Both the position numbers and the translations under genes were made by a program. Shown here in pieces: positions 12,545 through 45,601 of a DNA stretch of 64,000 bases. Within the stretch, counting starts at the first letter, position 1, and each line of letters begins with the position of its first letter. The stretch is taken from positions 74,462,001-74,526,000 of the forward strand of contig NC_135808.1 in assembly GCF_964213995.1 (NCBI RefSeq), given 5' to 3'. The notes under the pieces are model-generated. The model did no database searches, was not told the origin of the DNA, and worked only from the letters and a program-made list of their open reading frames with translations. Source of the stretch: Mustelus asterias. Taxonomy: Eukaryota.

Positions 12545-12799
12545 TTCCATGTGCCCCTCAGAATGTACAAGCTGATGTTGACACTGCCACAGCTTTTGTA
12601 ACGTGGCAGCCGAGTAATCTCACAGTGTCGTACGCTGCAACAGCAGAGGGGAGTAATGGACACATCACCACCTGTACCACATCGGAAACACACTGTCAAA
12701 TCCCAGATCTTCAATGCAGCCAAATATACAGCATCTCTGTACTGGCATTTGATGAAAACTGCAGCAGCATCCAAAGCTCCAGTTACGATATTCAGACAA
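12545..12799 (+). CDS. FN3 exon F, repeat 1 (VPCAPQNVQADVDTAT...YDIQT)
   Basis: cctcccaaag|TTCCATGT ... CAGACAA|gtaaga; 255 nt; 5 Cys (lacks second Cys). Confidence 0.88.
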
Positions 12800-12824
12800 G
12801 TAAGACAGAAAGAAAGAAAAAAGC

Positions 12825-13160
12825 TTGACTTTATAAAACACCTTTCATTTTTTGAGGACATCTTGAAACACTTCACAGTCAAGAGGTTACTTTTGAAGTG
12901 CTGTCTGTGTAAGCAAACCGAGTAATCAATTCACTCACTTCAAGCTCTTGAAACAGAGGTTGAAATGAATAATAAGTGAATCTGTTTTGACTTCCTTTAT
13001 TGGGCGATGAATACTGGCTAGGATATCTTCCTGCTCCCCTTAAGGAAAAGCAGATTAGGTGTGAGTCTCATTGGGAAGGCAGCAGGTGGGAAACCAGCAT
13101 TGCCTCACTGCAACCACACCAGATAATTGTCTAACTGAGGTGGATCCCAAAGGTGACCTC
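12825..13160 (-). mobile_element. Old DeuSINE-like remnant; homologous remnant after exon F of repeat 3 (~44620-44735)
   Basis: Similar to the better preserved copy at 39775-40487 (ACATCTTGAAACACTTCACAG versus ACATCCCAAAGTACTTTACAA). Confidence 0.4.
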
Positions 13161-13674
13161 CCACCTTTGTGGGGTCAGTTGGAGCACAAATGGCCCGTCA
13201 GACTCCACAGATCCAGTGCGAGCCTTTAGTACTTTGATTTACACCACATAATAAAAGGGTCACTCATGGGTTGCATTACATGGGTTCTCTTACAGGACCT
13301 GTCACCCTGGTGATGCCATCCTGCAGTTGGGTTCCAGGATGCTCCTGTACACAGTGGCAGGAGTGCAGCTCCATGCCCATTGATTTCATCCCTGTTCAGC
13401 CTACATTTCAGCAACTTTTACTCACTGTGAATATCAGCAATAAGCTAGAGATTTGGGATCTGCATCCTTGTCAGTCCATCTGGCATCATTAAAACAAAGA
13501 TTTGAGCTGAAATTTGGTGGTCCTAAAACACATTTTTTGTACTGACTCACCACAATTATAAGTATGAATCCTTTGTTAAATTTATTTAAGTTTCATGAGC
13601 TGCTAACAAGGACCACTTGACCAAAGCATTGTTTGACATGAACCTAGTGCACATTAATATTTATATTTCCACAG

Positions 13675-13935
13675 CACCATGTTCCCCAGATGAAATCATT
13701 GTGAATGTGAACTGTAATTCTAATAGCGTCATAATACTATGGAGTCAGGCTAATGGAGCTGTGTCATACGATATAACTGCAGAAGGCAGTGATGGACATT
13801 CGCACTCATACAACACAGCCAAGGCACACTATGAAGTTCTGGATTTACACTGTGGACAGTCGTATAATATAACTGTAACAACACTCAGTTACCATCAGAA
13901 TGGCATTTCAAGTACATCTGTCCAAACCCGAACAG
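13675..13935 (+). CDS. FN3 exon G, repeat 1 (APCSPDEIIVNVNC...VQTRT)
   Basis: ttccacag|CACCATGT ... CGAACAG|gtaaag; 261 nt; 3 Cys. Confidence 0.9.
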
Positions 13936-14047
13936 GTAAAGCTATTAATCCTTAAATAATACATAGCATGGAAATACTTTTACCTTTGTTTTTTCTGCAT
14001 GTTTACAGGACAGAGAGACTTGATATTCATGTGTATTTTCTAAATAG

Positions 14048-14308
14048 CACCGTGTGTCCCTGAGAATCTAAAAACTGAGCTGGATTGTGATTCGAACACA
14101 GTCTCCTTCTCGTGGGATGTCACGGATGGAGCAAAGTTATACACTGTGACCGCCCACGATAGTCAAGGAGTCGCAGCTTTATTCAACACCAGAGATACAA
14201 AGGCTCAAATCCCACACCTACAGTGTGGTGAATATTATACAATCTTTGTTCTAGCAACGGATAACATCTGCAAAAGTCCTCAGAGTGCAGTGGTGAATGT
14301 ACATGCAG
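14048..14308 (+). CDS. FN3 exon H, repeat 1 (APCVPENLKTELDC...VNVHA)
   Basis: ctaaatag|CACCGTGT ... CATGCAG|gtaacg; 261 nt; 4 Cys. Confidence 0.92.
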
Positions 14309-15232
14309 GTAACGCCTCATTTCCATAATGCATTTTGTGACAAATGCTTAACAAATGCAATCTTGTGTTTTACGGACAGCATTTAAATGCTTAAATTTTT
14401 AAGCAGTTAATTTTGCTCTGGTGCGGGTTTGTGCATGGTGCAGGTTAAGTTGCTGGAAGGTGCACGGCTGGAATTACTCTGTACGTTGCTGACAATGTAG
14501 ACTGGCAAAGCTGTAGGAATACATTAGGTGCAGTGCTTAAATAGCAGAGGGGAAACAGTGGTCAAGGTGAAATGTTCAGCATTTTATAGCAGAAACCAGT
14601 CCCATCTGGTCTGTCCTTATTTAAGATCTGCTGAATCTTACGGTTGGGTCTCAGGTGGGTATTTGTACTGCCTGAAGCGGGTAGGCGTTTTATTACCGTC
14701 GACATAAGGGTTGGGAATGGTTCATGATTATTTCCAATCACATGAACTGTGCAGCAAGTCTCCAGTGCATCCTACAAAAGCTGACAACAAGGCCTAGCTA
14801 CTCTTGCAGGTGAGAGGGCTTTAAAATGGCTCATACATGTTGAAGGTAAGTGCATTCAATCTTTTAGATGACTCTTTTGTAGTTTTCTTTTTAATCAGTT
14901 CTGGGTTTTCATGATCTTTTGTGTTAGGTGCAATTATTTACTGATTTTGCCCAGGATTTCCTTCATTGGCAACAGAGGATTTGGCACCAGGAAATGTTTG
15001 CTGAGATGCTTGGAGGGAAAAGGAAACATGTGAAAGATGGCTAGTCAGATCAGACTGTACAAGAGTGGCTCTGTGCTTTTCCACACCACTTATACACCCC
15101 AGCATCTGTGGAGAGAAGTAGCCAAATTCACCTTGGCAATGTTTTACAGTTTGGAACCATCAGGCAAATGGTATACTTGAGATGCTTTGAAGAACATTTT
15201 AGTTTCTGCATGTGAACATGACTCAATAGTCA

Positions 15233-16386
15233 TGTAGAAGCATCGGGTTCCAATAACTGGCAACTAGAGGCTAAAAACAGTCGATGTTTATTAACAGTAA
15301 CTGAGCAGCTCTTGCATGCTGTCCGCCTGCACTCCGGGAAAACCCCCAAGCTGCTGTCATGTGATCCCAGTCTGTATCTGCGCCATTCCAACATCCACAT
15401 GACCACCCAGTCTACATCTTCTTCATTTAAGTTGGGAGAGCCTGTAGTACTGAGGTGTAACAATATAGTAGAATAGTCACAAGTATGAACTATTTACGAC
15501 ATATAAAATTAAACTGGGCTAACAACACCTGACTACTTATAACGTGCAGAATACCGATTAGGCTACAGCAACTGGTGCATTGCCCATCGCCTCTCCTTTC
15601 CCCTCCTTTTAGAACACAGTCCATTCATAGATGAGTTCATCACATAGTCCTTGAACATTGTATTTGGTTTATTCGTGTGCCCTGAGTAAGTGATTAGACC
15701 AGTTGGGCGTGCTTGACATGCCCTCGGGTTGATATTTTCAGTGTAAATGGCATCAGGTGTTGTGGCATACCCTGAGGCTGCAGGGCTTGCTGCAGTGGCC
15801 CCTGAAGGGGCCTTCATTTCAGCAGTATTTCAGGATCCTCCTCCTCCATTTGGAAACAAAGGACTTGTATTCCTCAACCGCCTCAGGACCCACTAAATAT
15901 AGGAGTCTGTACACTTGTACCTCTTTGATTTGTCCAAAAGGCTGGCACCACAGTAGATATGACGCTCTTTTTCAAATTTTGTCCAGTTGTCTGAGATGAT
16001 TTTGTCACAGTAAGGAGTCTAACAACACCAGGTTAAAATCCAACAGGTTTATTTGGTAGCAAACACCATGGTGTTTACCCCAGTCCAACGTCGGCATCTC
16101 CACATCATGATTTTGTCAAACACGAGCGGCTCAATGCAGCAAGTGGCCATTCTGTCAATTCCTGAAACCATGCAGAGGTACTGGGTTCCAATACCTGGCG
16201 CCCGGGGACTAACAACAACTGATGTTTATTAACAGTAACTGTGCAGCTCTTAAAGCCTGTGCTCTGGGAGAAATCCTGCACAACTGACATGTGACCCCTT
16301 TTGTATCCACGTCATCGCAGCATTCACATGACCACCTAGTCTACAAGTCACTTCGATAATACTAGTCACTTGTTAGTGCTGTCGCA
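15233..16386 (-). mobile_element. Internally deleted, decayed Gypsy (Mag-like) LTR element
   Basis: Diverged direct repeats starting at 15233 and 16171; minus strand ...TGCA|TGGTTTCAG (PBS), gag start MATCCIEPLVFDKIISDNWTKFEKE...QVYRLLYLVGPEAVEEY, integrase-tail-like KDYVM, purine tract AAAAGGAGGGGAAAGGAGAGG before the 3' LTR. Confidence 0.6.
16008..16106. mobile_element. Penelope-derived mini-insertion with inverted 5' part, 12-bp TSD
   Basis: ATGATTTTGTCA at 15996-16007 and 16107-16118; 16008-16068 inverted, 16071-16106 direct. Confidence 0.85.
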
Positions 16387-16612
16387 ATACAGAATTAATG
16401 CAGGTTTACATTTATGGTGTTAATTTGGATGAAGTATGGACACACTCCATACTTTCATTTTCTATTCAAATTCCTGCGCTTCTAGAATGAAAAGTTTGAA
16501 TACAATTATTGATTGTTTAGTAAACACGTCCATCCAATTATTTATTTGAACTTACATTAATGATTTGATTCTATCAACTGACATCCATTCTCACTTTCAA
16601 TCTTATTTTCAG

Positions 16613-16873
16613 TCCCTTGTGATCCACAGAATGTAGAAGTGAGACTGGATTGTAACCTAAATACAGCTTTGGTGTCGTGGGATGACAGTAGAGGGGCGCT
16701 GTTGTACACTGCCTTTGCTGAAGGACCCGGTGGGAGCATCACATCGTGCAGCACATCAGAAACATCATGTAGAACTCCCAAGTTACTCTGTGGCCAGTTA
16801 TATTCTGTATATGTCATCGCGTCTGACAGCACATGTAACCAATCTCAGAGTTCAATGGTTGAGCTTCAAACAG
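16613..16873 (+). CDS. FN3 exon I, repeat 1 (VPCDPQNVEVRLDC...VELQT)
   Basis: ttattttcag|TCCCTTGT ... CAAACAG|gtaact; 261 nt. Confidence 0.93.
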
Positions 16874-16997
16874 GTAACTTTTGTTAACTCGTGTTAACTT
16901 ATAAACTTATAATAACATGCAACAAGTATCAGTAACCTCAAGGTCTCTCAGTTGGTTCACACCACCTAATTTCTTCCATTAAATGTATACTTTCCCT

Positions 16998-17231
16998 TGG
17001 TTTCGGTTAGCTCAGTTGCCTGGACAACTGGTCTGTGATGCAAAGTGACGCCAACAGCGCGGATTCAATTCCTGTACTGGCTGAGGTCGTTCATGAAGGC
17101 CCTGTCTTCTCAGCTTTGCCCATTGCCTGAGGTGTGGTGATCCACGGTTTAACTCACCACTAGTCAGCTCTCCCTCTCAAAGGAGTGGGCAGCCTGTGGT
17201 CATCTGGGACTATGGCAACCTTACCTTTTAC
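16998..17231 (+). mobile_element. tRNA-derived SINE (second family)
   Basis: GGTTAGCTCAGTTG A box, GGATTCAATTCC B box, tail GGGACTATGGCAACCTTACCTTT; second copy at 39868-40088. Confidence 0.75.
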
Positions 17232-17372
17232 TCTCAACCCTGCACATCTTCCCGTAATAACAGGAAGAATTATGTTGAAACTTTTTGAAATGCTGTTTGT
17301 ATATTCACATTGTTGAATCTAAGTAAAGCACTGTCTGTGCCTTCATCCATCTTGTTTCTCTGGTACCTTTAG

Positions 17373-17633
17373 CCCCTTGCAGTCCCCAGATTGTCAGTGC
17401 TTATTTGGAGTGTGCAACACACACAGCGTCAGTATTGTGGGAGCAGAGTGACGGTGCAGTGAACTACATCGCGATTGCAGAAGGAATGGAAGGAGACAAG
17501 TATTCATGCAATACAACAGAGGAAAGCTGCGAGATCGTAGACCTCCCGTGTGGTCAGATATACAGCATCACGATATTAGCAATGGATGAGAATTGTGCTA
17601 GTTTACCAAGTCCAGCTTTGGAAATTCAAGCAG
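17373..17633 (+). CDS. FN3 exon A, repeat 2
   Basis: cctttag|CCCCTTGC ... CAAGCAG|gtaaaa; 261 nt. Confidence 0.93.
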
Positions 17634-17869
17634 GTAAAAGCTTTGGTTCTCTTTTTATGAAGATAAACAAATAAAGGTCCTGAAAGACGGAAAAAAATAG
17701 AAGTAACATTATCAAGCAGTGTATTAATAAACACCACCTCACATATTGTAAATTGCTAATTGCAAAATTACTCTGAGTTAAAGACTCATATATCCAGGTG
17801 TTAATTCGATCAGATGTTGGTCAAATTGCATCTTCTTCATGCTGTATAGCTCATAATTGCACAGGGATT

Positions 17870-20800
17870 GATGTTTTTTAAACCATTGCAGGGCACTCAC
17901 ACCAATGCTAGTGAAAGTGGGAGCTGTACCCTTGGGACTAGTATTCTGGCAAGTCATATAACAAGGGCAGTAGAGAGGGCTTTAAATTAAATAGTGAGCG
18001 AGGGATCAAGTTTTTACACGAATTCGGCACTTTAAAATTTTTTTGGAAGAATCCCACCCAACTAATTTCTCCTCTCACCACCTGCCCATAAACAGGAAGG
18101 TGTTTCGATTTGTTTTCCTCTTTCTAAGCGATAGTATATTTCCCCAACCCCTCGGTTTTTGTGCTATCCAAATTTCCATTAATAACCCCACAGCAAACTC
18201 AAGACAGGATGGACTCAAAGGGTTACTTAATTTGCACATACTCAAAACGTCACACGTAGACAGTAAAGAGAGGGTGAGAGAAAACAGGGTTTTACAGTAT
18301 AGTTACCACAGAAAAAATGAATATTGGTTCACCTGAGTTCCAGAGTCCAGAATCAAAGTCCCATGAAATATTCCTTCACAGAGGCTGGCAGGCTAAAAGC
18401 TGATGTTGTAGAATCGATTTTTCCAGTGTTTTTGGACAGTTTCCTAGGGTATTGAGTTCTAAAGCCGACCAGAGAGAATAGCTGTACTCGATCAGATAAT
18501 GTGCAATGAGACATGATAAATCAGTAACCCTAAGTATCAGTGACATGATATGATTGAATTTCACATTCAGTTTGGAGGAGAGAGGAATGGATCAAAGACA
18601 AGTGTTTTAAACTTAAATAAGGGCAATTGTGAGGGCATAAAGATCTAAATAAAATGTACTTAGAAATTAGGTTTAGGGACACATTAGCAGAAATATAGTG
18701 ATTTCACAAACTGAGATAGGCACAGAGAGAGGAATCTGTCTTATAGGCGATGGCACAGAGTTTCCAACAGAGGCAGTGCACATGGGGCCAGGTATTCAAC
18801 CTGGGCAGAGTTCTTTCTGTGTGGCTGCTAGTCAGATGTTGAAAAGCAGACTGGGCTATGCAGTTCAGCAAGGCTATCACCGTTACCAAAATAGTAAAAA
18901 GTGTTACAGCCACCTGAGGAAAGGTTAAAAATGACTCCCCTATTCTACCAAGCCAGGTCTGACTATAACAAAGTTTTTTTTTTGTGAATTTAGAGGGGAT
19001 GCACTTTACCAATAATGTTGGAATTCCATTGCGTATGCTTTCAGATTGTAAAGAATTAGTCACATAGGTTGTCTGAGTTTAAACAAAGAACAAGATAAGC
19101 TTATTGAAGCTACTTCACAAATTATTTTTAAAAGTATGTAAATCGCAACCACAGTCATATGTCTCTTGCATTCCTTAGGTGTGCACACAGACACACACAC
19201 ACACACAGTAGTACAGATGGTGGAATAATAAGATAGACTTAAAGACCTTTTTACAGTTTGTGAACAAGCTAAAACAATGGAGTATATGGTTATCTGTCCT
19301 TTGACTCGTCTCGATGTGGCGATTCCACACTATGGCCATTTTGTTCAGTTGTCTTGCCAGGTGTAGTTGTATGGAGCAAATTTTCACATTTTATTCCTTT
19401 GTGAGAAAGATATGGAGATAATCATGGGTGGTTTCAATCTACACATAGTAGATTCAATGATATCTATGAATCAGATTGGCAAAGGTAGTTTGGATGATGA
19501 GTTCATAGTGTTTTTGGACAGTTTCCTAGGGTATTGAGTTCTAAACCCAACCAAAGAGCAAGCCGTACTCAATCTGATAATGTGCAATGAGACAGGATAA
19601 ATCAATAACCTCATAGTAAAGTACCTCTAAGTATCAGTGACACACGATTGAATTTCACATTCAGTTTGAAGGAGGGACGAATGGATCAAAGACAAGTGTT
19701 TTAAACTTAAATAAGGGCAATTATGAGGGCATAAGAGTTCTAAATAAGGTGAATTCAGAAATTAGGATTAGGGATAAATTAATAGAAATACAGTGACAGA
19801 CATTTAAGGAGATTTTTCAGAGTAATCATAAAAGATTCCAATGAGGAAGAAAGACTATGGGGGAAGATCACACCATCCGTGGCTAACTAAGGAAGTTAAA
19901 GATAGTATCAAATTGAAATAAAAAGTATATAATTCTGCAAAGGTGAGTCGTAGGCACAGAATATAAAGAGCAGCAAAACATGACTAAAATATTAATAAGG
20001 AAAAAGAAATTAGAGCATGAGAGAAAACTGGTTAAAAGTATAAAAACAGATAGTATACATTTCTACAGGTGTTTAAAAAGGAAAGAGTAACTAAAGTGAG
20101 TGTGGGGAATGAATAATGGAAAGTAAGACAATGGTGGATGAACTAAACAAATATTTATGGTTGTCTTCACTGTAGAGGATACAAATAACACCCCAGAAAT
20201 AAGTGTGAATAAGGAGGTGAAAGGCAGGGAGGAACTTAAAACAATTACCATCACCAGAGTAAAGGCACTGAGAAAATTAATAGAACTAAAAACTGACAAG
20301 TCTCCATCCTAGTGTCTTAAAAGAAATGGCCGCTGAATTGTAGATGCACTGGTTTTAATTTTCCAAGATTCCCTATGTTCTGGAATGGCCCCATCAAATT
20401 GTAAAATAGCAAATGTGAATCCATTATTCAAGAAAGGAGCGAGACAGAAAGCAGAAAACTACAGGCTAGTTAGCTTATCATCTGTCATAGGGAAATTGCT
20501 GGAATCTGTGGTTAACAAGGTTTAGTGGGGCACTCAGAAAATCTCAGTGCAATCGGGCAAAGTCAACATGGTTTTGTGAAAGGGAAATCAGGTTTGATTA
20601 ATTTATTGGAGTTATTTGAGCAAGTAACAAACAATGTGGATTAAGGAGAACCTGTGGATGTGCTGTACTTAGATTTTCAGACGGTACTTGACAAGGTGCT
20701 GCATCAAAGATTGCTATAGAAGATAAGAGGTCATGGTGTAGTGGGTAACATACATTAGCATGGGTAGAGGATTGTTTAGCTAACAAGAAATAGAGAGTAG

Positions 20801-22375
20801 GCGTAAGTGGGTCATTTTCAGGTTGGCAAGATGGGACGAGTAGTGTGCCACAAGGGTCAGTGCTAGGCCCGCAACAATTTACAAATTACTTGGATGAAAG
20901 GACCATATATGGTTGCTAATTTTGGTAATGATAGATAGGAAAGTAAGTTGTGAAGAGGACACAGGGAGTCTGCAAAGGGATATAGATAGGTTAAGTGAGT
21001 GGACAAAAATTTGGCAGATGGAGTGAGTGCAATGTGGGAAAATGTCCACTTTGGCAGGAAGAATAATAAAGCAGCTTATTATTTAAAAGGAGAGTGACAG
21101 TAGAATTTTGAGGTACAGAGGGATCTGGATGTCCTGGTACATGAATCAGGACAAGCTAGTATGGAGATGCAGACGGCAAATGGAATGTTGTCATTTATTG
21201 CAAGGGGAATGGGATATAAAAATAGGAAGTTTTGTTGCAGTTGGATGGGGCGTTGGTGAGATGATATCTGGAGTACTGTGTGCAGTTTTAGTCTCCTTAT
21301 TTAAGAAAAGGTATAAATATGTTAGAAACAATTCAGAGAAGATCCACTTGACTGGTAGCACCTGGGAAACACATCCCTGCTGACTCCAAATACCCCACAT
21401 TTCACACTCGAATGAGCGTTAATTGACATCAAGAGGACCTCTGCCCCTCACTCAGGAGGAAGTCAGCCATTGTGAGCTGCTGGCCAATCAGACTGGGCCG
21501 TAGCTTTCCAATCCCTGCAACAACAAAAGCTGAAGCAGACTGAAGAGGAACTTTAAGAAGATGCCGGAGCCTAAATCCTGGGACCAGAAGACAAGAGAAG
21601 TTTAAGGGGTCTCAGGGTGGGAGGGTAGGGAAGGCAAAGGGGATGATCGGGGTGTCAGTTCGGGCATCCACCAAGCCAGGTAAATCCTCCAGTTAACCTA
21701 TAAATGGAAGCTGGGCAGGAAATGGCCCTTAAGTAGCTAATAATTTGCCACTTATTAGCCTCAGCTGGGGCAAGGGGAGACGTCACAGCTGAGGTCTTGC
21801 CGAGTAATTGTAAAATCACTGCAAGGTTGGTGCAGGAAATTTAGGATGGCCAATCCACCTAACCCACACACCTTTGGAGTGTGGGAGGAAACCAGAACAC
21901 CCGGAGGAAACCCAGGCAGAATGTGCAAACAGCGACACAGACAGTGACCTAAGCCGGGAATCGAACTCAGATCTCTGGCGCTTTGAGGCAGCAGTGCTAA
22001 CCACTGTGCCACCGTGCCGCCCATTCAGACCATAAGATCCTGAGGGAACTTGACGGGGTGGATGCTGAAAGGATGTTTCCCCTTCTGGGAGAGACCAGAA
22101 CCAGCAGATACAGTTTAAGATTAAAGGGTTTTCCATTTAAGATGAGGATAAGAAGAATTGTTTTCTCTCGTTGGGTCACGAGTATTTGGAATTCACTGCC
22201 TGAGGGGAAGGCTTATTGAACACTTTTAATGTGGAGGTAGAGAGATTGTTGACTCACAAGCTTACCTGTGGTGGGCAGGCATGTGTTGAGGCCACAATCC
22301 GGTCATCAATTATCTTACTGAATTACTCAAGGGGCCAAGTTGCCTTACTCCTGCTTTTAATTCATTTGATCACAT
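17870..22375 (+). mobile_element. Old fragmented CR1 (ORF1 end ~17870-18000; ORF2 ~19405-21355; 3' end ~22023-22375) with nested insertions
   Basis: Decayed IIMGGFN, PSPWL, KAENYRLVSL, QHGFVKGKS, VPQGSVLGP, EYCVQF motifs with many stops and frameshifts. Confidence 0.8.
21846..22022 (-). mobile_element. V-SINE 5' half
   Basis: GGGCGGCACGGTGGCACAGTGGTTAGC head on the minus strand. Confidence 0.85.
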
Positions 22376-23137
22376 GTTTGTATTACAGAGAATGTTTTAT
22401 GGGGGCTCCCAGAACTCATACAATGAAGGGGAGCCAGTGACACTGATCAGGTATCCCACTGGATGCCAAGCTAGAACTGAGATCAGGAGCCTGAATCTCC
22501 TTTCAGCAGGATTGCCTGGAGCAATGCACCTTCTGACGTGGAAATCGTATCTCTAATACCAAATCGAAAGACCGGCAATTGAGAGTTGATTGACTAGAAA
22601 TCGTAGCAGTTTATTATTAGATTACTGTACCAATAATAGAGAGTGTAACAACTATTCATCCATCCATTGCCAGGCACCTGGAATGTGGGTGAAGGAACTC
22701 ATTATAAAACCAGAGCGTACCTCTTCTCATTCTTACCTTGTTTGTATAATCCAAATTTGCTATGTATCCATTTGCACATATATTTTGGTTTCTTAACCAG
22801 ACCTGAGCCCATTATTTCTATTTCACATTTCTTTTACATCTTGGACCATTTTCTCCTCTCACATCCTGTGTACTCATTCAGTTCTCCTTCAGGACCCTTG
22901 ATAAAACTCACTTCTTAGATCAAGCTTTTATCATTACTAATAGCTCCACCTTTGCTCAGCATTCATTTTCTCTTTTACACTTCATTAACCAGCGTGCTAT
23001 GTTTTTGCATGTTAATTGAATTATAAATATGCAAATAGTTATTGTTCTGTCAGTAAGTCAATGTTTAGTCATGTATATGTGGTATTTAAATGTACAATGG
23101 TTTAAGAATACTTTCCTGTGTTTTCTTCTTTTCGCAG

Positions 23138-23398
23138 TGCCTTGTATCCCACAGAATGTGGTCGCTCACATCAACTGTGAAAGTAATAATGTGTCAGTGT
23201 TTTGGGATCCCAGTAATGGTACAGAGTCATACCTTGTAACAGCCCAAGGAAACAATTATCATTGGACCTCATGCAATGCAACAGACACTGAATGTGTGAT
23301 CTCGGATGTGTACTGTGGACTGAGCTACTATATAACTGTACAGGCAATCCGCATGCAATGTAACAGCTCACAAAGCTCTGCTGTTACAGTTAAAACAG
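23138..23398 (+). CDS. FN3 exon B, repeat 2
   Basis: ttttcgcag|TGCCTTGT ... AAAACAG|gtaatt; 261 nt. Confidence 0.93.
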
Positions 23399-23425
23399 GT
23401 AATTCTAGACAAGGAATTGGGCAGT

Positions 23426-23498
23426 GGTCAGTTAGCTCAGATGGTTAGACGTGGTGCTAATAACACCAAGGTTGCGGTTTCAATCCCCATACTGACCA
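23426..23498 (+). pseudogene. tRNA-Ile(AAT)-like pseudogene
   Basis: Acceptor GGTCAGT/ACTGACC-A, anticodon arm TGGTG-CT-AAT-AA-CACCA; D stem lacks a G (GAC for GAGC) and the T stem is mismatched. Confidence 0.75.
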
Positions 23499-23510
23499 GT
23501 AAACTTTCTT

Positions 23511-33857: not shown

Positions 33858-34118
33858 CCCCTTGCAGTCCCCAGATTGTCAGTGCTTCTTTAGAGTGTGC
33901 AACACACACAGCGTCAGTATTGTGGGAGCAGAGTGACGGTGCAGTGAACTACATCGCAATTGCAGAAGGAATGGAAGGAGACAAGTATTCATGCAATACA
34001 ACAGAGGAAAGCTGCGAGATCATAGACCTCCCGTGTGGTCAGATGTACAGTATAATAATATTAGCAATGGACGAGAGTTGTGCTAGTTTACCAAGTCCAG
34101 CTTCGGAAATTCAAACAG
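33858..34118 (+). CDS. FN3 exon A, repeat 3
   Basis: tctttag|CCCCTTGC ... CAAACAG|gtaaaa; 261 nt. Confidence 0.93.
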
Positions 34119-34568: not shown

Positions 34569-34829
34569 TGCCTTGTATCCCACAGAATGTGGTCGCTCAC
34601 ATCAACTGTGAAAGTAATAATGTGTCAGTGTTTTGGGATCCCAGTAATGGTACAGACTCGTACCTTGTAACAGCCCAAGGAAACAATGATCATTGGACCT
34701 CATGCAATGCAACAGACACTGAATGTGTGATCTCAGATGTGTACTGTGGACTGAGCTACTATGTAACTGTACAGGCAATCCGCATGCAATGTAACAGCTC
34801 ACAAAGCTCTGCTGTTACGGTTAAAACAG
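34569..34829 (+). CDS. FN3 exon B, repeat 3
   Basis: ttccgcag|TGCCTTGT ... AAAACAG|gtaatt; 261 nt. Confidence 0.93.
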
Positions 34830-34973
34830 GTAATTCTAGACTAGAATTTAAAACAAGAAATTCTAAAATATATACATTTTAGTTGGATAATTGTCATTTT
34901 TCTATCTTATGGGAAGTTTTGCAACTCAGTGTTTTTATTCAGGAGGTAACATTTATGAATTCTCTTTTTGCAG

Positions 34974-35228
34974 TGCCATGTATCCCACAGAATGTTGATG
35001 CTTACATGAACTGTGATGCTGGATATATGTCAGTCTCATGGGAGTTAAGTCAAGGTGCAATATCATACATTGCGACTGCTGAAGGAAGCAATGTACAACA
35101 ATGCAGCGCTAATGAAACCTTGTGTGACATCACTGAGCTGGACTGTGGAGAAACCTACACCATCACAGTTCGTGCACACGATGATTCATGTGACACTGCT
35201 GAAAGTCCGTCCATCACAAAGAAAACAG
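34974..35228 (+). CDS. FN3 exon C, repeat 3
   Basis: tttttgcag|TGCCATGT ... AAAACAG|gtaact; 255 nt. Confidence 0.93.
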
Positions 35229-35429
35229 GTAACTAAAGAGAAGAGGATTTTTCCATATCACGGATTGCTGCATCAATCTCACTAACCCTGATTTCTACAC
35301 TGTCCAAATACTGTTCTCTAGAAAAACTCACAAATACATTTGCACAAAGATTTCAATTAGATTTTAATTTCACAAAGATAACCAACTTCTGGTCAAGTGC
35401 TCGTCATCTGCTCTTTTCATTCTTTTCAG

Positions 35430-35690
35430 CATCATGCATCCCACAGAATCTCGATGTCCAGCTGGATTGTAACACAAACGATGCTTCTGTGTCCTGGGGC
35501 CACACTAAAGGTGCAGTGTCGTACTCTGCAACAGCAGAGGGAGGTGATGGGCACACAGTATCATGTGATACAGCCAACAGACAGTGTCAAATAGCCAATC
35601 TACACTGTGGACAGATGTACAATTTAACTCTGACAGCACTGGATGGTGTATGTGACACTTCACAAAGCTCTCATTTTGAGTTCAGCACTG
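35430..35690 (+). CDS. FN3 exon D, repeat 3
   Basis: cttttcag|CATCATGC ... AGCACTG|gtaagt; 261 nt. Confidence 0.93.
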
Positions 35691-36420
35691 GTAAGTCTTT
35701 TGCATGGAATCGGGTGGTTCAAAACTGGTAGATCTGATTCCCACACAGCTTGATTTATATCGAGTATTCCACATAATAAAACATCCCAAAGAAGAATATG
35801 GATATTGAAAAGGACTTGGGAGTAGTTGAATGAAGATAAGGCCCCCAAACTGAATTTTAAGGAATGTTTTTGACAGGCAGAGAGGTAATAACTCAAAATT
35901 AATTCCTCACAGCATGTCCCTGATGGTTGAAGACTCAGTCCTCAGTGGGGCTATGGAAAATGAGGGTGACCAGGGGGCTGAGATAGGAACAAGCAAAATG
36001 ATCCAGAATTAGAAGGACCTGTGCTGAAAATTGAGATGAAGGGTTAGAAATGTTTGCTGAAAAAGGATAATCCCAGTGGAAGGATTTTAACTCAAAAGAA
36101 AGTCTGTCAGTTATATAATGTCCTCCAAACCCTCAATGTATCAAAGCACTTTACAACCAATGAAGTGTGTTTGCATTATTGTCACTGATGTACTATAGGA
36201 ATTGCTTTTGGGATTGGAGGATTGGGATGACAGGAGTTCTGTGTGAGATGTTGTCTCATAAGATGGGACACAGGATGGCCTTGCGGAGAGTGGTGTCAAA
36301 GTCAATTATATGCTTCTTAGAAGGTTGCTACTTAAGTAAAATTGTTTGGATACAACATTGGGCTCCACAGCACCCCTACCTTTGATGATGTTGGTACCAT
36401 TTTTAGCCCCAAAATGCTAT

Positions 36421-36588
36421 TCATAGAATCATAGAATCCTACAGTGCAGAAGGAGGCCATTCGGCCGATCGAGTCTACACCAACCACAATCCCGCCCAGT
36501 CCCTATCCCCATAGCCCCTTGCACTAACTGATCCCTCTGACACTAAGGGCCAATTTAGCAAGGCCAATCTACCTAACCCACACATCTT
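36421..36588 (-). mobile_element. 5'-truncated V-SINE
   Basis: CATAGAATCATAGAATCCTACAGTGCAGAAGGAGGCC tail on the plus strand. Confidence 0.85.
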
Positions 36589-36908
36589 TATTCATGCCAT
36601 GCACACAGATATCCCCACCAAACATGCTCTTTGAGAGGGCATTAGTACAGATATTTGGAGCATGTGCCAAGCACATAGAGTAGGCAGCACATGATGTCAG
36701 TCAGTGTGTAACAGTGATTTAAAGCTAGTGCTGCCATTCCAGCTAATAACAAATCTTCAACTCATTCAGCACTCAGCCAGAGGAATGACCATCCCCTTCC
36801 CCACCAGTACTCCTTAACATCATCATCAACAACCCTTTGACTAGTTGCTGATTAATTTATACTGGCAATGTTTTAGTTTGTCAAAAAGCTTCATGGATTC
36901 CAGACTTA

Positions 36909-37265
36909 GAACCATAGAAAATTACAGCTCAGAAACAGGCCTTTTGGCCCTTCTTGTCTGTGCCGAACCATTTTATGCCTAGTCCCACTGACCTGCACTT
37001 GGACCATATCCCTCCACACCCCTCTCATCCATGAACCCGTCCAAGTTTTTCTTAAATGTTAAAAGTGACCCCGCATTTACCACTTTATCCGGCAGCTCAT
37101 TCCACACTCCCACCACTCTCTGCGTGAAGAAGCCCCCCTTAATATTCCCTTTAAACTTTTCTCCTTTCACCCTTAACCTATGCCCTCTGGTTTTTTTCTC
37201 CCCTAGCCTCAGCGGAAAAAGCCTGCTTGCATTCACTCTATCTATACCCATCAAAATCTTATACT
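36909..37265 (-). mobile_element. CR1 3' end
   Basis: MGIDRVNASRLFP...FFTQRVVGVWNELP ORF2 C-terminus plus 3' UTR. Confidence 0.9.
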
Positions 37266-38079
37266 TGTTTAAAGTTTTGGCATCGACAGCAAGTGATGCA
37301 ATGTGGTTTTGATTTAAAGAGTTCGGTCAGACCATTTTCTCCCAGTCAAGGGTGCTGTTGTTACCTTTAGTCCACACAATGTAAGGGAGATAGAGCAAAA
37401 TCAGCTCAGAAAAGGAAAGATGCTCATCAAGGGAAGAGGAGGAAGGATAGAAGTGCACTCGGCAGGAGACCAACTACACTTAGAGTCTTCGGCGAGCATT
37501 TCTTTTAACTCAAGCTCAACCAGGAGCAGTGTGTCTGCATTATAAGAAGGAGACATTCACGGAACTCTACCAGCGCTGGTAACCAGAGCTGCAGTGTCAG
37601 ATCCAGACAGAGTGGCACTGTCAGTGACTGTGAATTTGAATGTGTCCAGATCCACCAGGCTGGAGCAGGGGACATCTGTAACATGTCTCAGTTCACCATC
37701 TACTGCAGGATAAGAGAGGTGATTAACACTCTTTATGCAAGGGGAGGGAGTTCACTGTGTCCTCTCTGACCAGAGAAAAGCAGATGATGCATGTACACGG
37801 CTTTGCCAGGACAGTGGGTTTTTCCCCGTGCTGTAGGGTACCAAGTGTGAGATGTGGGTGTGAGGCGTGCAGCAGTGTGAGGGTGAGGTGAGGCTATGAA
37901 TGTGAGGTCTGCACTGTGTTTGATAATGATTGTTGGCACCTGTTGAACGGGGGTGTGCTGAATAGAGTGATGTGTGAGGCTCATGGTTCATTTCTAAGCG
38001 TTATAGCTTGCCAAATATTAGTTCATCCAATCTTGGCATGTGCAAGTTACATACCAAGAAAATAAATAAGACTCAAGTA

Positions 38080-38420
38080 ATCTGAAGATGGGCCACACAA
38101 TTCTGCACGAATCAGTATGGGAAATACACCAGCGTCACATCCTTGATTAAAGATTTGGAATGGGAATCACTACACAAAGGAGGAAGCAAATTCCATGATC
38201 TATAAAATGTGCAATGGACTGGTGGGAATTGATAGAAACAAGTAGTCGGAGCCCTCTGGCAACAACAAAGCATGAGGTAGCCTTCCAACAAACCACAAAG
38301 ACCATTGTTTCCAAGACAGTGCATCAGCAATCCTTCTTCCCAAGAACAATCCGACACTGGAATAAGATGCCAAAGGAAATATCACTGGAAATCTCCAAGA
38401 CCCATCTTTAGATTATTTCC
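38080..38420 (+). mobile_element. Decayed LINE RT C-terminal fragment (related inverted piece at ~38870-38990)
   Basis: YGKYTSVTSLIKDLEWESL ... IYKMCNGLVGID ... QQSFFPRTIRHWNKMP. Confidence 0.6.
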
Positions 38421-39189
38421 ATTTTAAAGATTTTATTGTCAGGCCTACCATCTCAGCAGGTCACACCTGATTTAACTCGTGCTGCCCACAGAAATGTTAG
38501 CAAAACGCAGATATTAATCTGTGACAGCGACATTGGAAAAGCAGAAGAAGGATAAGATATATGAGAATGTATTCGCTGACCTTGACTGCTCATAAAGGGA
38601 AGAGGAGGAAGGATAGAAGTGCTCCTGGCACTGTTTCTACTTCATTGGACCTAGACTGCTGGCATTGACTCTCATGGTTACCGGCTCCCACTGCTTTCCA
38701 GTCTGGACTGCCACATGGCTCAATGGAATAGGATCTTTCTGTCCACTTGTTGCACCAAAGACTATCGTGCTGCATCATAGCACACAGGAGCATACTGTCT
38801 TGGAAACAAGTGGTCTTTGTAGTTTGGATGTAGTGTGAATGACTACATGTTCTGACATTGCTGGAGCACATTCAGTCTATTTTTTCTCCCTGTGCTGTGG
38901 TGATTTCCATTCCAAAGTCTTTGGTAAAGGATGTGACATTAGTATATTTCCCATACTATTTTATGCAGAATCACGCAGCATGTCTTTGGATCGCTTCATC
39001 ATTATGTATGTCTCTTGGCATTTGAAGATCGCATGTACAACTTGCACACTCTTGTGCCTCCTGAACATTTCCACTCCTCCAGCTCTGAGATGGTCTGTAA
39101 CCACTTCCTGCACATGTTGGAAACAACTATGGAAATAGGCACCAGAATTGAATGTCATTCTAATTGCTAAAGGTCTAATTTCCAGCCTG

Positions 39190-39480
39190 TGGAGATCTTG
39201 TGGTGCCGTGAGTAACCTCCCTGCCTCTGGGGCAGAAGCTTTGGGTTCAAGTCCCACTCAGGGTTTGAAGATCAAGGAAGGTGTATTGATAATACTGCCA
39301 AACAGGTTGAATATCACCTTATAAACCCTTCCAACATGCACCAATGGTAGGTGATAAGAATTGGAAAGATTCCTGGTCAGCCACGTGATAGAAAGAAATT
39401 GGAATCTCTACCATCACTATTCATAGCTCCAGGTTACAATATGTATGTCAAAGTTTATGTTGCCACAGCAACTCAGGCTC
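39190..39480 (+). mobile_element. tRNA-derived SINE (third family)
   Basis: TGGTGCCGTGAG A-box-like and GGGTTCAAGTCC B box; 3' boundary uncertain. Confidence 0.45.
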
Positions 39481-39867
39481 CTTGGAGGTGTGGGCTGGGG
39501 AGGGTGGTTGGTGTTGGCGATGGTTCCATTGGCTGGATAGCCATTGTGAATCAGATAGGTGCCAACAGCATGGGATTTAATCCCCCTTTCTGGCTGGGTG
39601 GATTTGAGACCTGCCTCTGGGGTGGAGGTTGAGGCACTTTGGGTTGAATCTGCCTTTGGGCCGGGAACTCAAGAAGATGAATATCTTCCCAGTTGAATTC
39701 ACTCACCAAGGTAAGAGTTGAAAATCTACTCCTGTTCTCCCTAGAGACCAGTGTAACTTTGAAAAAAAAGAATGGTATGCACTTGTATAGTGCCATTCAC
39801 GACCACTGGACATCCCAAAGTACTTTACAATCAATGAAGTACCTTTGAGGTGTGATCACTGTAGTAA

Positions 39868-40088
39868 TGAAAGTCGCCAAAGTCCCAGAGGACATAAGGC
39901 TGCTCTGCCCCCTTTTTGGGGGGGGAGAGCTGACTGGTGGTGATTTAACCTGAGGGTCACCATGCCTTAGATGAGGAGCAAGGTTGAGAAGGTGGACCTT
40001 CATGAATATCCTCAGCCAGTATGGGAATTGAACCTGTGCTGTTGGCCCCACTCACATCACGAGTCAACTGAGCTAAACCGATCCCCAC
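39868..40088 (-). mobile_element. tRNA-derived SINE (second family), 12-bp TSD
   Basis: TCACTGTAGTAA at 39856-39867 and 40089-40100; homologous to 16998-17231. Confidence 0.8.
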
Positions 40089-40240
40089 TCACTGTAGTAA
40101 CATAGGAAACATGACGGTTAATTTGTGCACTACAAGCTCCCACAAACAGCAATGGCCACATCATCTGTTTTTGTGATAAATATTGGCCGGGGATAATTCC
40201 GCCAGTCTTCAAAATCATACCATGGCATATTTTACATCCA

Positions 40241-40334
40241 GTAAGAAGTCTAACACCAGGTTAAAGTCCAACAGATTTATTTGGTAGCAAAAGCCACTAG
40301 CTTTCGGAGCAGGCTGTCCCTTCGTCAGGTGGGT
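40241..40334 (-). mobile_element. Penelope-derived mini-insertion, 14-bp TSD
   Basis: ATATTTTACATCCA at 40227-40240 and 40335-40348. Confidence 0.82.
40294..40332 (-). ncRNA. Minimal hammerhead ribozyme motif
   Basis: ccac CUGACGA a gggacagccugcucc GAAA gcua gugg; stem II has one mismatch. Confidence 0.6.
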
Positions 40335-40750
40335 ATATTTTACATCCACCAGGGAGTGCAGACAGGGTCTTGGTTTAATATCACCCAAAAGACAGAACCT
40401 CTGACAGTACTACACTCCCACAGTACAACCCAGATTGTTGACTTAACTCATGGAGTAGATCTTGAAGCCACAGCCTTCTGACTCAGAATTCTCAATAAAA
40501 TCAACACAATCTTTGAGTGAAATAAAGCCATTTATTCTCAAAGGAGAAACCGTCTGTTTTAAAAAGAGCCAGGATTTTCCCTTGTAATTATACCAACAGG
40601 TACATTCAAATATGTTAGAGGGCTTTACTTATTCAAAGGAAATAACTGAGCAAATGAAACCGTGTTCAGAAGCACCAGTGTAATTACAGTGACAGTCTTG
40701 TAAATATTCCTTGCCCTCTCACAGCCAGTTTGTGTTTGTGTATTTCGCAG

Positions 40751-41011
40751 CCCCGTGTGCACCCCAATATATTGACACCAGCCTAAACTGTGTCACCAAG
40801 ACTACGACAGTGACATGGGAGGAGAGTGATGGTGCGCTGTGGTACATCACAACAGCAGAAGGACAAGATGGACATGTAACACTGTGCAATACAACAGAGA
40901 CAAGCTGTACGTTCATGGACCTGCACTGCAGTCAGACATATTTAATCACTGTCAAAGCACTGGATGGTTATTGTCAGAGCGTAAACACTTCTACTTTTGA
41001 AATTGAACCAG
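40751..41011 (+). CDS. FN3 exon E, repeat 3 (APCAPQYIDTSLNC...FEIEP)
   Basis: tatttcgcag|CCCCGTGT ... GAACCAG|gtaaag; 261 nt. Confidence 0.93.
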
Positions 41012-41359
41012 GTAAAGTTGCTAAAGAGGTTTTTGATGGCAGGAAAATGTTACACTGGCACAATTGCAAGGACTGTCGTGAGGTCTGAACTCTCAGAAGC
41101 TCATAGTGATAATTTGGGCAGTCATGTTACACTTGTTTTGCTCAGTCTGGTGACCCAATTCAACAGAGTTTGAATGATTTGATCCCCAGGTTTCCATCCA
41201 GTTAATAACCTGAATGTAATGACCACTGTGCTCTCTTTGTAGAATCTCCTTCCACTATGAGGCAGCCTCTCTAGAAATTTGTAAACTAAAGCCCAACTCA
41301 GAAATGACAGTCCATGTTGAATTCTGAATAGTTCCTGCACAGTTATTGAGGATCCTGTT

Positions 41360-41572
41360 CTAGAATCCCTACAATGCAGAAGGGGGCCATTCGGCCCATT
41401 GAGTCTGCACCAACCACAATCCCACCTAGTCCCTATTCCCGTAGCCCCATGTATTTACGTTGCTAGTCTCCCTGACACTAAGGGACAATTTAGCATGGCC
41501 AATCAGCCTAACCCGCACATCTTTGGACTGTGGGAAGAAACCGGAGCACCCGGAGGAAACCCACGCAGGCAC
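41360..41572 (-). mobile_element. 5'-truncated V-SINE; the same insertion is present at the paralogous site 63910-64000
   Basis: Same junction TGTTCTAGAATC(C/T)CTACA in both E-F introns. Confidence 0.85.
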
Positions 41573-41639
41573 AAACAGGTTTCTAAACAGTTTTGTGATG
41601 CTGTGAAATATTAAACTGGCCTAATAGCAAGTCCTGTAA

Positions 41640-44300
41640 GGAAATCTGAAGTCCAGGAAGGTCAGAGTGGTAATTTGGGAGATTATGATGACATTTGTTC
41701 TCACCGCTGTGGTAACCTTATTCATGATGTGGAGATGCCGGCGTTGGGTGGGTTTCTTACTTCTCACTGTCACCTTATTCAGCAGAGAGACTTTGAATAC
41801 TCAGATCACTGGGATTTCTACCCAGTTACTAAAATTATTTCCATCTTATCAATGAGACCCACTCCTGTTTGCTTCAATTTTTTTTCTGCTAAACTGCTGA
41901 TTGCCCAACTTTCCCTCCTGGTCCCGATGTTACCCAATATTGAATGCAGTTCCTTCTTTTGAGGTGTCATTCCTCTCTCTTGAAAATCTGCCGTCACCAC
42001 CCCACTCCTCGAAAAACCAACCCTAACCCCATTGTCCATGCAAATCGCTGTCCCATTGCCAGCCTGTCTTTCTTTCCAAGGCCTGTGAATGTGTTGTCAC
42101 CTCCCAAATCTGTTCCCCTCTTTCTTCGAGCTCGATATTTGAATCCTTCCAGTCAGGCCCCCTCCCATGTCAGTACTGAAACAACTCAAAAAGTCACAAA
42201 AGGAATCCTATGTGACTGTGACAAAGGTAAACTTGCCCTCTTTATCCTTCTCAACCTGTGTGCGGCCTTTGAACTGGTTGACCGCACTATCCTCCACCAA
42301 AGCCTCTCCACTGTTGACCAGCTGGCTGCAACTGCCCTCTCCTGGTTCCATTCTTATCTATCTAATTATAGCCAAGGGTCACTTGAAGTGGCTTCCCTTC
42401 CTACTCATGCATTGTTACCTCGAGTGTTCCCCAAGGATCCATCCCTGGCCCCCTCCTATTTCTCATGCACATGCTTCCCCTCACCAATATCATCTGAAAT
42501 TGCAGAGCTGGTTCTCACAAAAAGCTGATGGCATTCAATACTACCTCAACACCGCCTCAACACCGCCTCAACACCACCTCAACACCGCCTCAACACCACC
42601 TCAACACCACCTCAACACCACCTCAACACCACCTCAACATCGCCTCAACACCACCTCAACATCACCTCAACATCACCTCAACATCACCTCAACATCACCT
42701 CAACACTGCCTCAACACCACCTCAACACCACCTCAACACCACCTCAACACCACCTCAACATCGCCTCAACACCACCTCAACACGACCTCAACATCACCTC
42801 AACATCACCGCAACACCGCCTCAACACCGCCTCAACACTACCTCAACACCACCTCAACACCACCTCAACACCGCCTCAACATCGCCTCAACACCACCTCA
42901 ACATCACCTCAACATCACCTCAACACCACCTCAACACCGCCTCAACACCGCCTCAACACCGCCTCAACACCACCTCAACACTGCCTCAACACTGCCTCAA
43001 CACCACCTCAACATCGCCTCAACACCACCTCAACACCACCTCAACACCACCTCAACACCACCTCAACACTACCTCAACATCACCTCAACACCGCCTCAAT
43101 ACCGCCTCAACACCGCCTCAACACCACCTCAACACCACCTCAACACCACCCCAACACCACCTCAACACCACCTCAACACCACCTCAACATCACCTCAACA
43201 CCACCCCAACACCACCCCAACATCACCTCAACAGCACCCCAACACCGCCTCAACATCACCTCAACACCCCCCCAACACCACCTCAACACCGCTTCAACAC
43301 CGCCTCAACACCACCTCAACACCGCCTCAATACCACCTCAACACCACCTCAGCATCACCTCAGCACCGCCTCAACACCGCCTCAATACCACCTCAACACC
43401 ACCTCAGCACCGCCTCAACACCGCCTCAACACCACCTCAACGCCACCTCAACGCCACCTCAGCACCACCTCAGCACCACCATTCCTGACTCCTCCATCTT
43501 TTTAAAATTATCAAACTAATTATCCATCATCCCATACTGGATGAGCAAAAATGTCTTCCAATTAAATATTGGGAACAGCGAAGCCATTGTTTTCAGTCTC
43601 TGCTTCAAACTGTCTCTTAGAGACCAACTTTATCTTTTACTCGGCAAAAATCTGGGATTAATCCAGTCTGTTCACAGCCTGGGTGTAACATTTGACCCTG
43701 CGATAAGCTTCCAACCTCATATTTATGCCAGCACTAAGATTTGGAACATCCCCCTGTCCTCAGTTGATATGCTCCTGGAACCCTCATTCATGCTTCCATT
43801 ACCTCTTGACATGCATGCCCACCATAAACGTGAAATTATCCAAACTCTGCTGCTGTGTCTTAGCTGCTGCTCTATCACTCCTGTGCTCACTAACCTCCAC
43901 TGGCACTCATCAAGCAACATCTTGATTTTTAAATTCTCATTTTCAAAGTGCTGTATGATCTTGTCCCTTGCTATCTCTATATAATTTCTTCTAGCCCTAC
44001 AACCCTTCAAGATATCTGCGCGCCTCTAATTCTGGCCCCTTTTGCATACCCAATTTTAATCACTCCACCATTGACGGCTGTGCCTTCAGTTGCCTCGGCC
44101 CTTGGCTCCATAATATCCTCCTTAAATCTCTCTGCCTGTCTATTTCACATTCTTCCTTTAAGACGGTCTCCTTGTCCAAGCATTGGGTCATCCTTAGATT
44201 GCTCAGTGTCATGCTTAAATTTATAATGCTCCTGAGAAGTGTCTTAAAAGATGATATTTTGCCAAAAGTGCTATTTACATATAAGTCATTGTTATTGTAA
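41640..44300 (+). mobile_element. Decayed L2-like LINE containing a minisatellite
   Basis: ILLNLCAAFELVDRTIL, ALSWFHSYLSN, VPQGSI.GP, WMSKNVFQLNIGNSE, ITPVLTNLHW; tail GTGCTATTTACATATAAGTCATTGTTATTGT. Confidence 0.8.
42536..43480. repeat. 11-bp minisatellite (CAACACCACCT)n, about 85 units
   Basis: Directly visible; variants CAACACCGCCT, CAACATCACCT, CAGCACCACCT. Confidence 0.97.
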
Positions 44301-44344
44301 TATCGCTAATTCATGAATTCTCTTTTTTTTTCTCCTCACTGAAG

Positions 44345-44599
44345 TACCCTGTCCTCCTCAGAATGTACAAGCTGATATTGACACTCTCACTGCCTTTGTA
44401 ACGTGGGAGCCGAGTAATCTCACAGTGTCGTACGCTGTAACAGCAGAGGGGTGTGATGGACACATCGCCACCTGCGCCACATCGGAAACACACTGTGTAA
44501 TCCCAGATCTTCACTGCAGCCAAATATACAGCATCTCTGTACTGGCATTTGGTGAAAACTGTAGCAGCATCCAAAGCTCTAGTTATGACATTTGGACAG
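44345..44599 (+). CDS. FN3 exon F, repeat 3 (VPCPPQNVQADIDTLT...YDIWT)
   Basis: cactgaag|TACCCTGT ... TGGACAG|gtaata; 255 nt; lacks second Cys, gains a Cys in EGCDG. Confidence 0.85.
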
Positions 44600-45340
44600 G
44601 TAATATAGAAGGGCAAGATTTGGCTTTGTATTCAACCTTTCATCTCCTCAGAACATCTTAAAACACTTCACTATGAAAGATTTATTTCTGGAGTGTAGTC
44701 GATGTAGTATTGTTGGCAATCTGAGCAGCAAGGTCATAGCCATTGAATGTTAGCAAGCAATAATTCCCTCCTGAAGCAGTCCTCTGATCACCTTCAAAAA
44801 TATGCCGCGTCTGACCTGTTGGTTTAAGACTGTTCAGCTGTCTAGTTTCCCACAGGTGGGTGGGGTTAAAATTGACTATCAGTATTTAGAGTCCGTTACA
44901 GACACCCATTGAACTCACTCAATTGGCCAAAGTTTAGAAGTATCTACGATACAAATATCCTGAGTCCATACGCACGGATGCCACCCCCATTCAGTCTGTC
45001 CCACAAGAAGTTCCCCTAGACACTGTTTGCACTAGAAACAGCTAAAGCATCCTTCTATAAGTTTCTGGGATCATTGATGCAAAAGTTTAATATTCAGAGA
45101 AAACCTTTCTAGATTCTGTGATCAGACTGGGTAAAGGTTATAGTAACCCAAAGTCCTGAGCTGAAATTTGTTGGTCCCAATAAACAATATCTGGGTTGAA
45201 TCATCGCAATGTGGAATATAATGATGACTGTATTATCCAACTGGTTTAAGCTTAATGAGATGTTGCAAGCATCATCAGGCCAAGACAATTTCTCATATCA
45301 AACTCAGTGGATATTAATGTTTAAATTGCCTTTTACACAG

Positions 45341-45601
45341 CACCGTGTGCTCCAGATGAAATCATTGTGAATGTGGACTGTAATTCGAATAGAGTAGTAG
45401 CATCGTGGGGACGGACTGATGGAGCGATATTATACAATGTAACTGCAGAAGGCAGTGATGGACATACGCACTCTCACAACACAACAGAGACAAGCTATGA
45501 AATGCTGGATTTGCACTGTGGACAGACCTATAACGTAACAGTGACAACACTCCATTATAGCCGGAGTGGCTTCTCAAGCACTTCTGCCCAAATCCAAACT
45601 G
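45341..45601 (+). CDS. FN3 exon G, repeat 3
   Basis: ttttacacag|CACCGTGT ... CAAACTG|gtacta; 261 nt; 3 Cys. Confidence 0.88.

Follow-up and report, generated by a model that had tools for sequence, protein, structure and literature searches.

The 64,000-nucleotide stretch of the Mustelus asterias genome analysed here (assembly GCF_964213995.1, contig NC_135808.1, positions 74,462,001 to 74,526,000 of the forward strand; hereafter the window) carries part of a FNDC7-like gene built of repeated FN3 domains, whose cysteines appear to be placed so that each domain would be joined to the next by disulfide bonds. The window contains 28 FN3 exons, each encoding a single domain, in the order A B C - - F G H I / A B C D - - G H I / A B C D E F G H I / A B C D E, where dashes mark absent exons and strokes separate the repeats by which the exons are numbered. 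All are phase-1 exons of 255 or 261 nt with AG acceptors, and an in-frame GT donor follows 27 of the 28. With 70 kb of upstream and 80 kb of downstream flank added to the window, the whole locus (G000:C8, 74.42–74.56 Mb) holds 60 cysteine-type FN3 exon units, including six G and five F exons, and at least three additional FN3 exons lie further upstream of these. Exon A5 (L009, window-relative position 79943) has 258 nt, one codon less than the other A exons.

The gene is a prediction from genomic DNA, and several comparisons bear on its identity. All nine domain types match Pfam PF00041 (fn3) with E values of 5e-7 to 2e-3, six of the nine reaching the 25-bit cut-off, and the top profile match of the window domains is fibronectin FN7-10. 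Fibronectin FN7-10 (PDB 1FNF, 3T1W) is also the best Foldseek match (E 1e-17) of an AlphaFold2 model of the E-F-G-H protein of the skate Leucoraja, which is all-beta with a predicted local distance difference test (pLDDT) of 71 and a predicted template modelling score (pTM) of 0.41. G1 is 63–76% identical to shark and ray proteins named 'FNDC7-like', and the locus has the traits of the FNDC7-like (fndc7rs) proteins: six-cysteine FN3 repeats, FNDC7-type N-terminal exons and a C...C./C.CC.. tail (dots stand for absent cysteines). FNDC7 proper is a short protein (about 820 amino acids) of C.CCC. domains, as against the 60 mostly six-cysteine units found here. From its predicted translation, the exon series is an array of FN3 domains in a FNDC7-like gene with a putative giant product; N-glycan sequons are frequent in the predicted protein, which is compatible with its secretion and nothing more.

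The features on which the following account relies are, in window coordinates:

2903..59224, plus strand: span of the FNDC7-like gene's 28 exons within the window, A1 to E4.
3461..3721, plus strand: exon B1, with seven cysteines by count (the extra one at profile position 72) and intact splice sites.
12545..12799, plus strand: exon F1, pattern C.CCCC, with a 2-residue deletion in the strand A/AB loop and an AAG acceptor; C5 codon at 12715-12717.
13675..13935, plus strand: exon G1, pattern CC..C.; its C1 codon at 13680-13682 encodes the likely partner of the F1 C5.
14048..14308, plus strand: exon H1, pattern CC..CC; C5 and C2 of G1 are predicted to pair with its C1 and C6, respectively.
25258..25518, plus strand: exon D2, with six cysteines; its C2 would be partnerless if joined to G2, and both its partners would be present if joined to H2.
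25620..25902, no strand: the site in repeat 2 where E and F were deleted, with D-intron homology up to 25619 and F-G-intron homology from 25903.
26027..26287, plus strand: exon G2, with an open frame, an intact CAG acceptor and no donor; likely skipped or dead.
26284..26291, plus strand: the destroyed G2 donor, with three substitutions and one inserted base.
26400..26660, plus strand: exon H2, intact, pattern CC..CC.
40751..41011, plus strand: exon E3, with six cysteines, the usual upstream neighbour of F.
44345..44599, plus strand: exon F3, pattern C.CCCC with an extra cysteine in EGCDG (codon 44452-44454, profile position 39).
45341..45601, plus strand: exon G3, pattern CC..C., with the intact donor CTG|GTACTA.

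Numbering the six cysteines C1 to C6, the count over all exons recovers the patterns given in an earlier note on this DNA: H lacks C3 and C4 (CC..CC), F lacks only C2 (C.CCCC), and G lacks C3, C4 and C6 (CC..C.). The same note gave six cysteines to the A, B, C, D, E and I domains, which holds in general but not for B1 with its seven. The extra EGCDG cysteine that it saw in F3 is present, but is also common to F4 and F5 outside the window, and thus to three of the five F exons of the locus. The AAG acceptors, called weaker in the note, of the F exons in the window extend to all five (12545 and 44345, with three outside), while 54 of the 55 other units have CAG or TAG; this may favour skipping of F.

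Which cysteines pair with which was approached through their joint loss in relatives. A profile built from the window domains gave 10,717 matches, of which the best 150 were used, and addition of 22 earlier proteins brought the set to 169; after 39 non-family proteins and truncated domains were dropped, 1361 abutting, fully aligned junctions remained from 130 of the 169. The relatives are gene-model predictions, and the ten that were looked up span lungfish, newt, caecilian, frog, bichir and teleosts. Writing C1′ and C6′ for cysteines of the following domain, C2 and C6′ are both lost at 75 junctions, C2 alone at 5, C6′ alone at 39 and neither at 1242 (phi 0.77, rising to 0.84–0.86 after de-duplication at 70, 50 and 40%). 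C5 and C1′ are both lost at 5 junctions, C5 alone at 1, C1′ alone at 4 and neither at 1351 (phi 0.68). Within domains, C3 and C4 are lost together (phi 0.89), as expected from the earlier proposal that they form a pair, whereas the default intra-domain pairs C1-C6 and C2-C5 proposed with it find no such counterpart (phi -0.01 and 0.03). A FastTree tree of 878 junctions, built from short rows with the cysteine columns removed, yields 21 tree-independent pairs that differ in C2; C6′ changes with it in 16.8 of these and oppositely in none (p 1.5e-5), and the controls, both within one domain, give 1/21 for C5 with C2 and 0/20 for C1 with C6. C5 and C1′ are co-lost in three of four lineages, in two of which C2 and C6′ are retained; junctions of this kind, lacking C5 and C1′ and having C2 and C6′, are found in newt P0024 and in Denticeps P0047. 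FNDC7 proper (frog P0143, catfish P0156) contains runs of C.CCC. domains with C1 and C5 at opposite poles. At the 36 junctions where C2 is present without C6′, the next domain has a BC-loop cysteine in 14 cases and a first-residue cysteine in 2, and the tail joint of our locus is of this type with a substitute cysteine. The last domain of the array reads C.CC.. in 27 proteins as well as here, without the two cysteines that would require a following domain.

We propose, with a probability of roughly three in four, that each joint is stapled by two inter-domain disulfides, C5 of one domain with C1 of the next and C2 of one domain with C6 of the next, that C3-C4 is the only intra-domain bond, and that the F-G joint keeps the first of the two staples. 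These are predicted bonds, their pairing being inferred from co-loss. We take general FN3 topology to place C2 (end of strand A) and C5 (EF loop) at the C-terminal pole, and C1 (third residue) and C6 (FG loop) at the N-terminal pole, and C5 aligns with the proline of LxPG, the EF-loop motif, in fibronectin FN7 and FN10. From this assignment it follows that four cysteines, C2, C5, C1′ and C6′, would meet at every joint, across a linker without spare residues. C5-C1′ would be the core bond, almost never lost and present alone in FNDC7 proper, and C2-C6′ an accessory bond that was dropped many times. The chain as a whole would form a stiff extracellular rod that is hard to extend. The bond from C5 of F to C1 of G that the earlier note had suggested is probably real, but with co-loss absent for C1-C6 and C2-C5 it would be a junction bond common to the entire family and not a peculiarity of F and G. 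What would distinguish F-G is the absence of the second bond, both of whose cysteines have been lost: a 2-residue deletion in strand A of F probably shifted C2 out of reach, G lost its C6, and the orphaned C2 would later have been lost in some lineages.

Several points weigh against this proposal. The co-loss of C5 and C1′ comprises only four events, which puts significance in a sign test out of reach (p 0.25), and 29 of the 1361 junctions remain mismatched even when tolerance is allowed for, F-G joints of sharks and rays making up 16 of these, so that the cysteine rule for junctions is best described as strong but not absolute. The relatives are gene models, taken as the best 150 of the 10,717 matches plus 22, and the tree stands on short rows. 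A sequence search of solved structures with P0019 gave no matches, and the AlphaFold2 model of E-F-G-H, at pTM 0.41, bears on the fold. Upstream of the window, one exon has an in-frame TAG between intact splice sites, and this exon must either be skipped or the predicted gene is split. Finally, a re-pairing of intra-domain bonds after the loss of two cysteines would be formally compatible with the co-loss. A prediction of the G+H complex scored 0.16 against a mark of 0.34 (alignment not used) and counts for neither side.

In the reading of the earlier note, C1-C6, C2-C5 and C3-C4 would be formed within each domain by default, C5-C1′ would arise only in the absence of both C2 and C6′, and F-G would be a special, obligate pair. 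Each of its pairs would lie at one pole of a domain by general FN3 topology, F-like and G-like domains are adjacent in all 20 relatives described below, and co-loss of C2 and C6′ is predicted by it in principle, through re-pairing. However, the direct losses that it predicts, C1 with C6 and C2 with C5, should then be the commoner ones, yet they occur at chance level (0/20 and 1/21 independent pairs) while the roundabout loss occurred about 17 times; the P0024 and P0047 joints would demand a second type of switch; and F has a C2-like cysteine in 16 of the 20 relatives, yet the C1 of G, left free in that case, has been lost in none of them. We regard it as unlikely. The four junction cysteines might also pair crosswise (C2-C1′ and C5-C6′) or in mixed forms, as all four would share one joint and sequence alone does not fix the geometry, but co-loss tracks C2-C6′ and C5-C1′, and in C.CCC. 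arrays C5 and C1′ are alone at the joint, which makes crosswise pairing very improbable.

The F-G pair was followed in other sharks and rays through 20 relatives found with F or G as query, all of them gene models. The check suggested by the earlier note, whether G occurs only after F, gives a uniform answer: each of the 20 G-like domains is preceded by an F-like domain, and vice versa. At our locus G follows F in five of six cases, G2 being the exception. C1 of G is retained in 20/20 relatives and in all six copies here. A C2-like cysteine, in the motif QADC, is present in 16 of the 20 F domains although G lacks C6 in all 20; it is absent from Stegostoma, Cetorhinus, Leucoraja and Heptranchias F0 (4/20), and from all five F exons of our locus. 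This fits a QADC cysteine that is an orphan, with a predicted C5-C1′ bond in all species. An unpartnered cysteine thus seems to be tolerated at the F-G joint (16 of 20 F domains elsewhere), as in B1, F3, F4 and F5 here, and because of this tolerance the term 'obligate' appears too strong, even though the adjacency of F and G that it was meant to describe stands in 20/20. In a caecilian protein, P0028, domains 19-20 show the same 2-residue deletion and a QADC motif before a domain lacking C6, hinting that the F-G joint either is older than the split of sharks from bony vertebrates or has arisen twice.

Another reading is that each super-repeat would have a single free thiol in its F-G region, the QADC cysteine of most sharks and rays or the EGCDG cysteine of F3 to F5 here, and that this thiol would cross-link chains into a mesh. 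The cysteine count of F and G together is odd in 15 of the 20 relatives (one more has an extra cysteine) and in three of the five F-G pairs here, the EGCDG position is used by no other upstream domain among the 1361 junctions, and its loop would be at the same pole as C2 by general FN3 topology. Against a mesh, the free cysteine is absent from the four exceptions just named and from F0 and F1 here, and the EGCDG cysteine was probably gained in a single event and spread by duplication. A mesh of this kind is improbable in our judgement.

Repeat 2, in which the earlier note had seen no F exon, indeed has none, but the description was incomplete as its E exon is gone as well, and repeat 1 (4102-12544) lacks D and E; in repeat 1 the joint between the C exon and F1 is cysteine-matched and both exons are intact. 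In the D2-G2 intron, D-intron sequence runs to 25619 and F-G-intron sequence is found from 25903 on; between them lies a piece of a repeat, of which 25761-25827 matches further LINE-like copies (LINE, long interspersed nuclear element). A single deletion accounts for the loss of E and F. Searches of repeat 2 with blastn, with tblastn and with a profile in all six frames found no hidden or degenerate E or F exons. G2 is, as first described, the only one of the 28 exons without a GT donor: it reads CTG|ACATCT where G3 to G5 read CTG|GTACTA, GT having become AC at 26288-26289, and the lesion comprises three substitutions and a 1-nt insertion inside 26284-26291. An assembly error at the donor or the deletion is unlikely, as a contig built from the short reads of run X1 is identical over 26250-26413 and two further X1 contigs tile the D2-G2 junction (25503-26012), again without a difference, X1 being possibly from the same sample. 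Nor does a cryptic donor offer itself: by a rough score from a matrix of the locus's own donors, the best out-of-frame GT site reaches 1.5 and the best in-frame one -7.1, compared with 8.1 for G3 to G5. The exon is likely skipped or dead. A contig of organism B (run X5) differs from the 3′ end of G2 at 8 positions and by one gap, compared with 27–36 mismatches for the paralogues, and has neither the inserted base nor the change at 26284 (two of the four lesions); the damage looks recent because this contig is closer than any paralogue and lacks those two lesions. The coding changes of G2, three private non-synonymous and three synonymous, are uninformative on relaxed selection.

Whether the donor was removed by selection, as the earlier note suggested, or simply decayed is a separate question. 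After the deletion G2 would have faced D2 and left the C2 of D2 partnerless; with G2 skipped, D2 would be joined to H2 in frame and with all cysteines matched. The locus has 59 consecutive joints, of which four show a mismatch: D2-G2, two joints at broken exons upstream, and the tail joint, which has a substitute cysteine. From F0 to H5, a run of 44 repeat exons, G2 is the sole broken exon and stands at the sole mismatched junction (1 in 44, a post-hoc p of 0.023; counting the four exons with extra cysteines as mismatched, 1/5 vs 0/39 gives p 0.11). This coincidence, together with the intact frame and acceptor of G2 and the apparent recency of the lesion, speaks against neutral decay, in which G2 would have dropped out of the mRNA through the E+F deletion by its acceptor, or through earlier skipping of an E-F-G block, with cysteine parity irrelevant. 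Decay is nonetheless favoured by a deletion junction that ends about 125 nt ahead of the G2 acceptor and by four changes in a donor that fewer would kill. Elsewhere in the locus three upstream exons are broken and four absent although the P0066 orthologues have six cysteines, repeat 1 lost D and E without any mismatch, and B1, F3, F4 and F5 keep intact donors despite an extra cysteine. We consider neutral decay slightly better than an even bet; loss of the donor through selection seems the less likely of the two. D2-G2 is the only cysteine-mismatched joint of the repeat region, but selection against G2 is indistinguishable here from decay after the adjoining deletion, and the F-G and G2 case is by itself a modest, single event.

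The broken exons upstream of the window belong to the same gene and lie at L005:8095 onward, L006:990-1440 and L006:2811-3071; one is cut by a LINE-like insertion, another is frameshifted and has an insertion bordered by a short duplication, and the third has the TAG between intact AG and GT. Four exons adjoining them are present in P0066 and absent here. Transposon-like sequences occur elsewhere in and near the window. An uninterrupted stop-to-stop frame of about 1010 amino acids on the minus strand of the H3-I3 intron (46528-49560) resembles a LINE endonuclease/reverse transcriptase, and overlapping long frames on the minus strand at 59748-63569 resemble the gag, protease, reverse transcriptase/RNase H and integrase of a long terminal repeat retrotransposon. 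Three LINE-like 3′ fragments (10556-11241, 28959-29644, and L005 near 6430-7105) are 96–97% identical, their near-identity suggesting recent activity. The E3-F3 intron has a strong guanine-cytosine skew of -0.61 at 42001-44000.

The FNDC7-like or fndc7rs proteins of fishes and amphibians are of the same family as the product of this locus, with the same domain order A to I and the same C...C./C.CC.. tail, and those of lungfish, newt, caecilian, bichir and teleosts reach up to 5143 amino acids and 57 domains; the shark locus differs from them in its own lineage-specific deletions (D+E and E+F), the probably dead G2 and the EGCDG cysteine. FNDC7 proper in frog and catfish shares FN3 domains with C1, C3, C4 and C5 and a predicted C5-C1′ bond, but at about 820 amino acids, and with C2 or C6 missing from most domains, it would have one staple per joint. 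Fibronectin FN7-10 is similar in having one exon per domain, phase 1-1, and head-to-tail beta sandwiches, although its domains are only 14–19% identical to those here. Fibronectin FN3 repeats are not known to contain disulfides and can unfold under force, whereas the joints of our locus are predicted to be covalently locked. Bonds at FN3 joints have precedents: the insulin receptor alpha-beta bond joins FnIII-2 and FnIII-3, and engineered FIII9-FIII10 bonds exist. Their geometry allows two adjoining FN3 domains to be bridged, as is proposed here, though with one bond at one joint as against two predicted bonds per joint over tens of domains.

The freely accessible literature searched yielded no disulfide map and no structure of a FNDC7-family protein, and the ESM Atlas has FN3/FNDC7 clusters only; structure is not mentioned in the available portions of PMC9750624 and PMC7335280. 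In zebrafish, the support cells of the lateral line express fndc7a and fndc7rs4 (PMC6363392). We speculate, as an extension that is itself doubtful, that the giant FNDC7-like proteins are covalent zippers, rigid double-stapled rods in which a cysteine 'handshake' would limit exon shuffling to matching neighbours, G2 would be in the course of being purged, and the lone thiol of F would link rods once per super-repeat.

The literature we found offers hardly any mechanistic description of FNDC7 or of its giant relatives in fishes and amphibians. If the proposed double staple is correct, FN3 joints of this family would give stiff rods unlike the extensible fibronectin, which bears on the expression in lateral-line support cells, and would provide a natural recipe for rigid FN3 tandems. 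It would further predict which FNDC7 cysteine variants should be damaging in pairs, and would set a protein-level limit on exon shuffling additional to intron phase.

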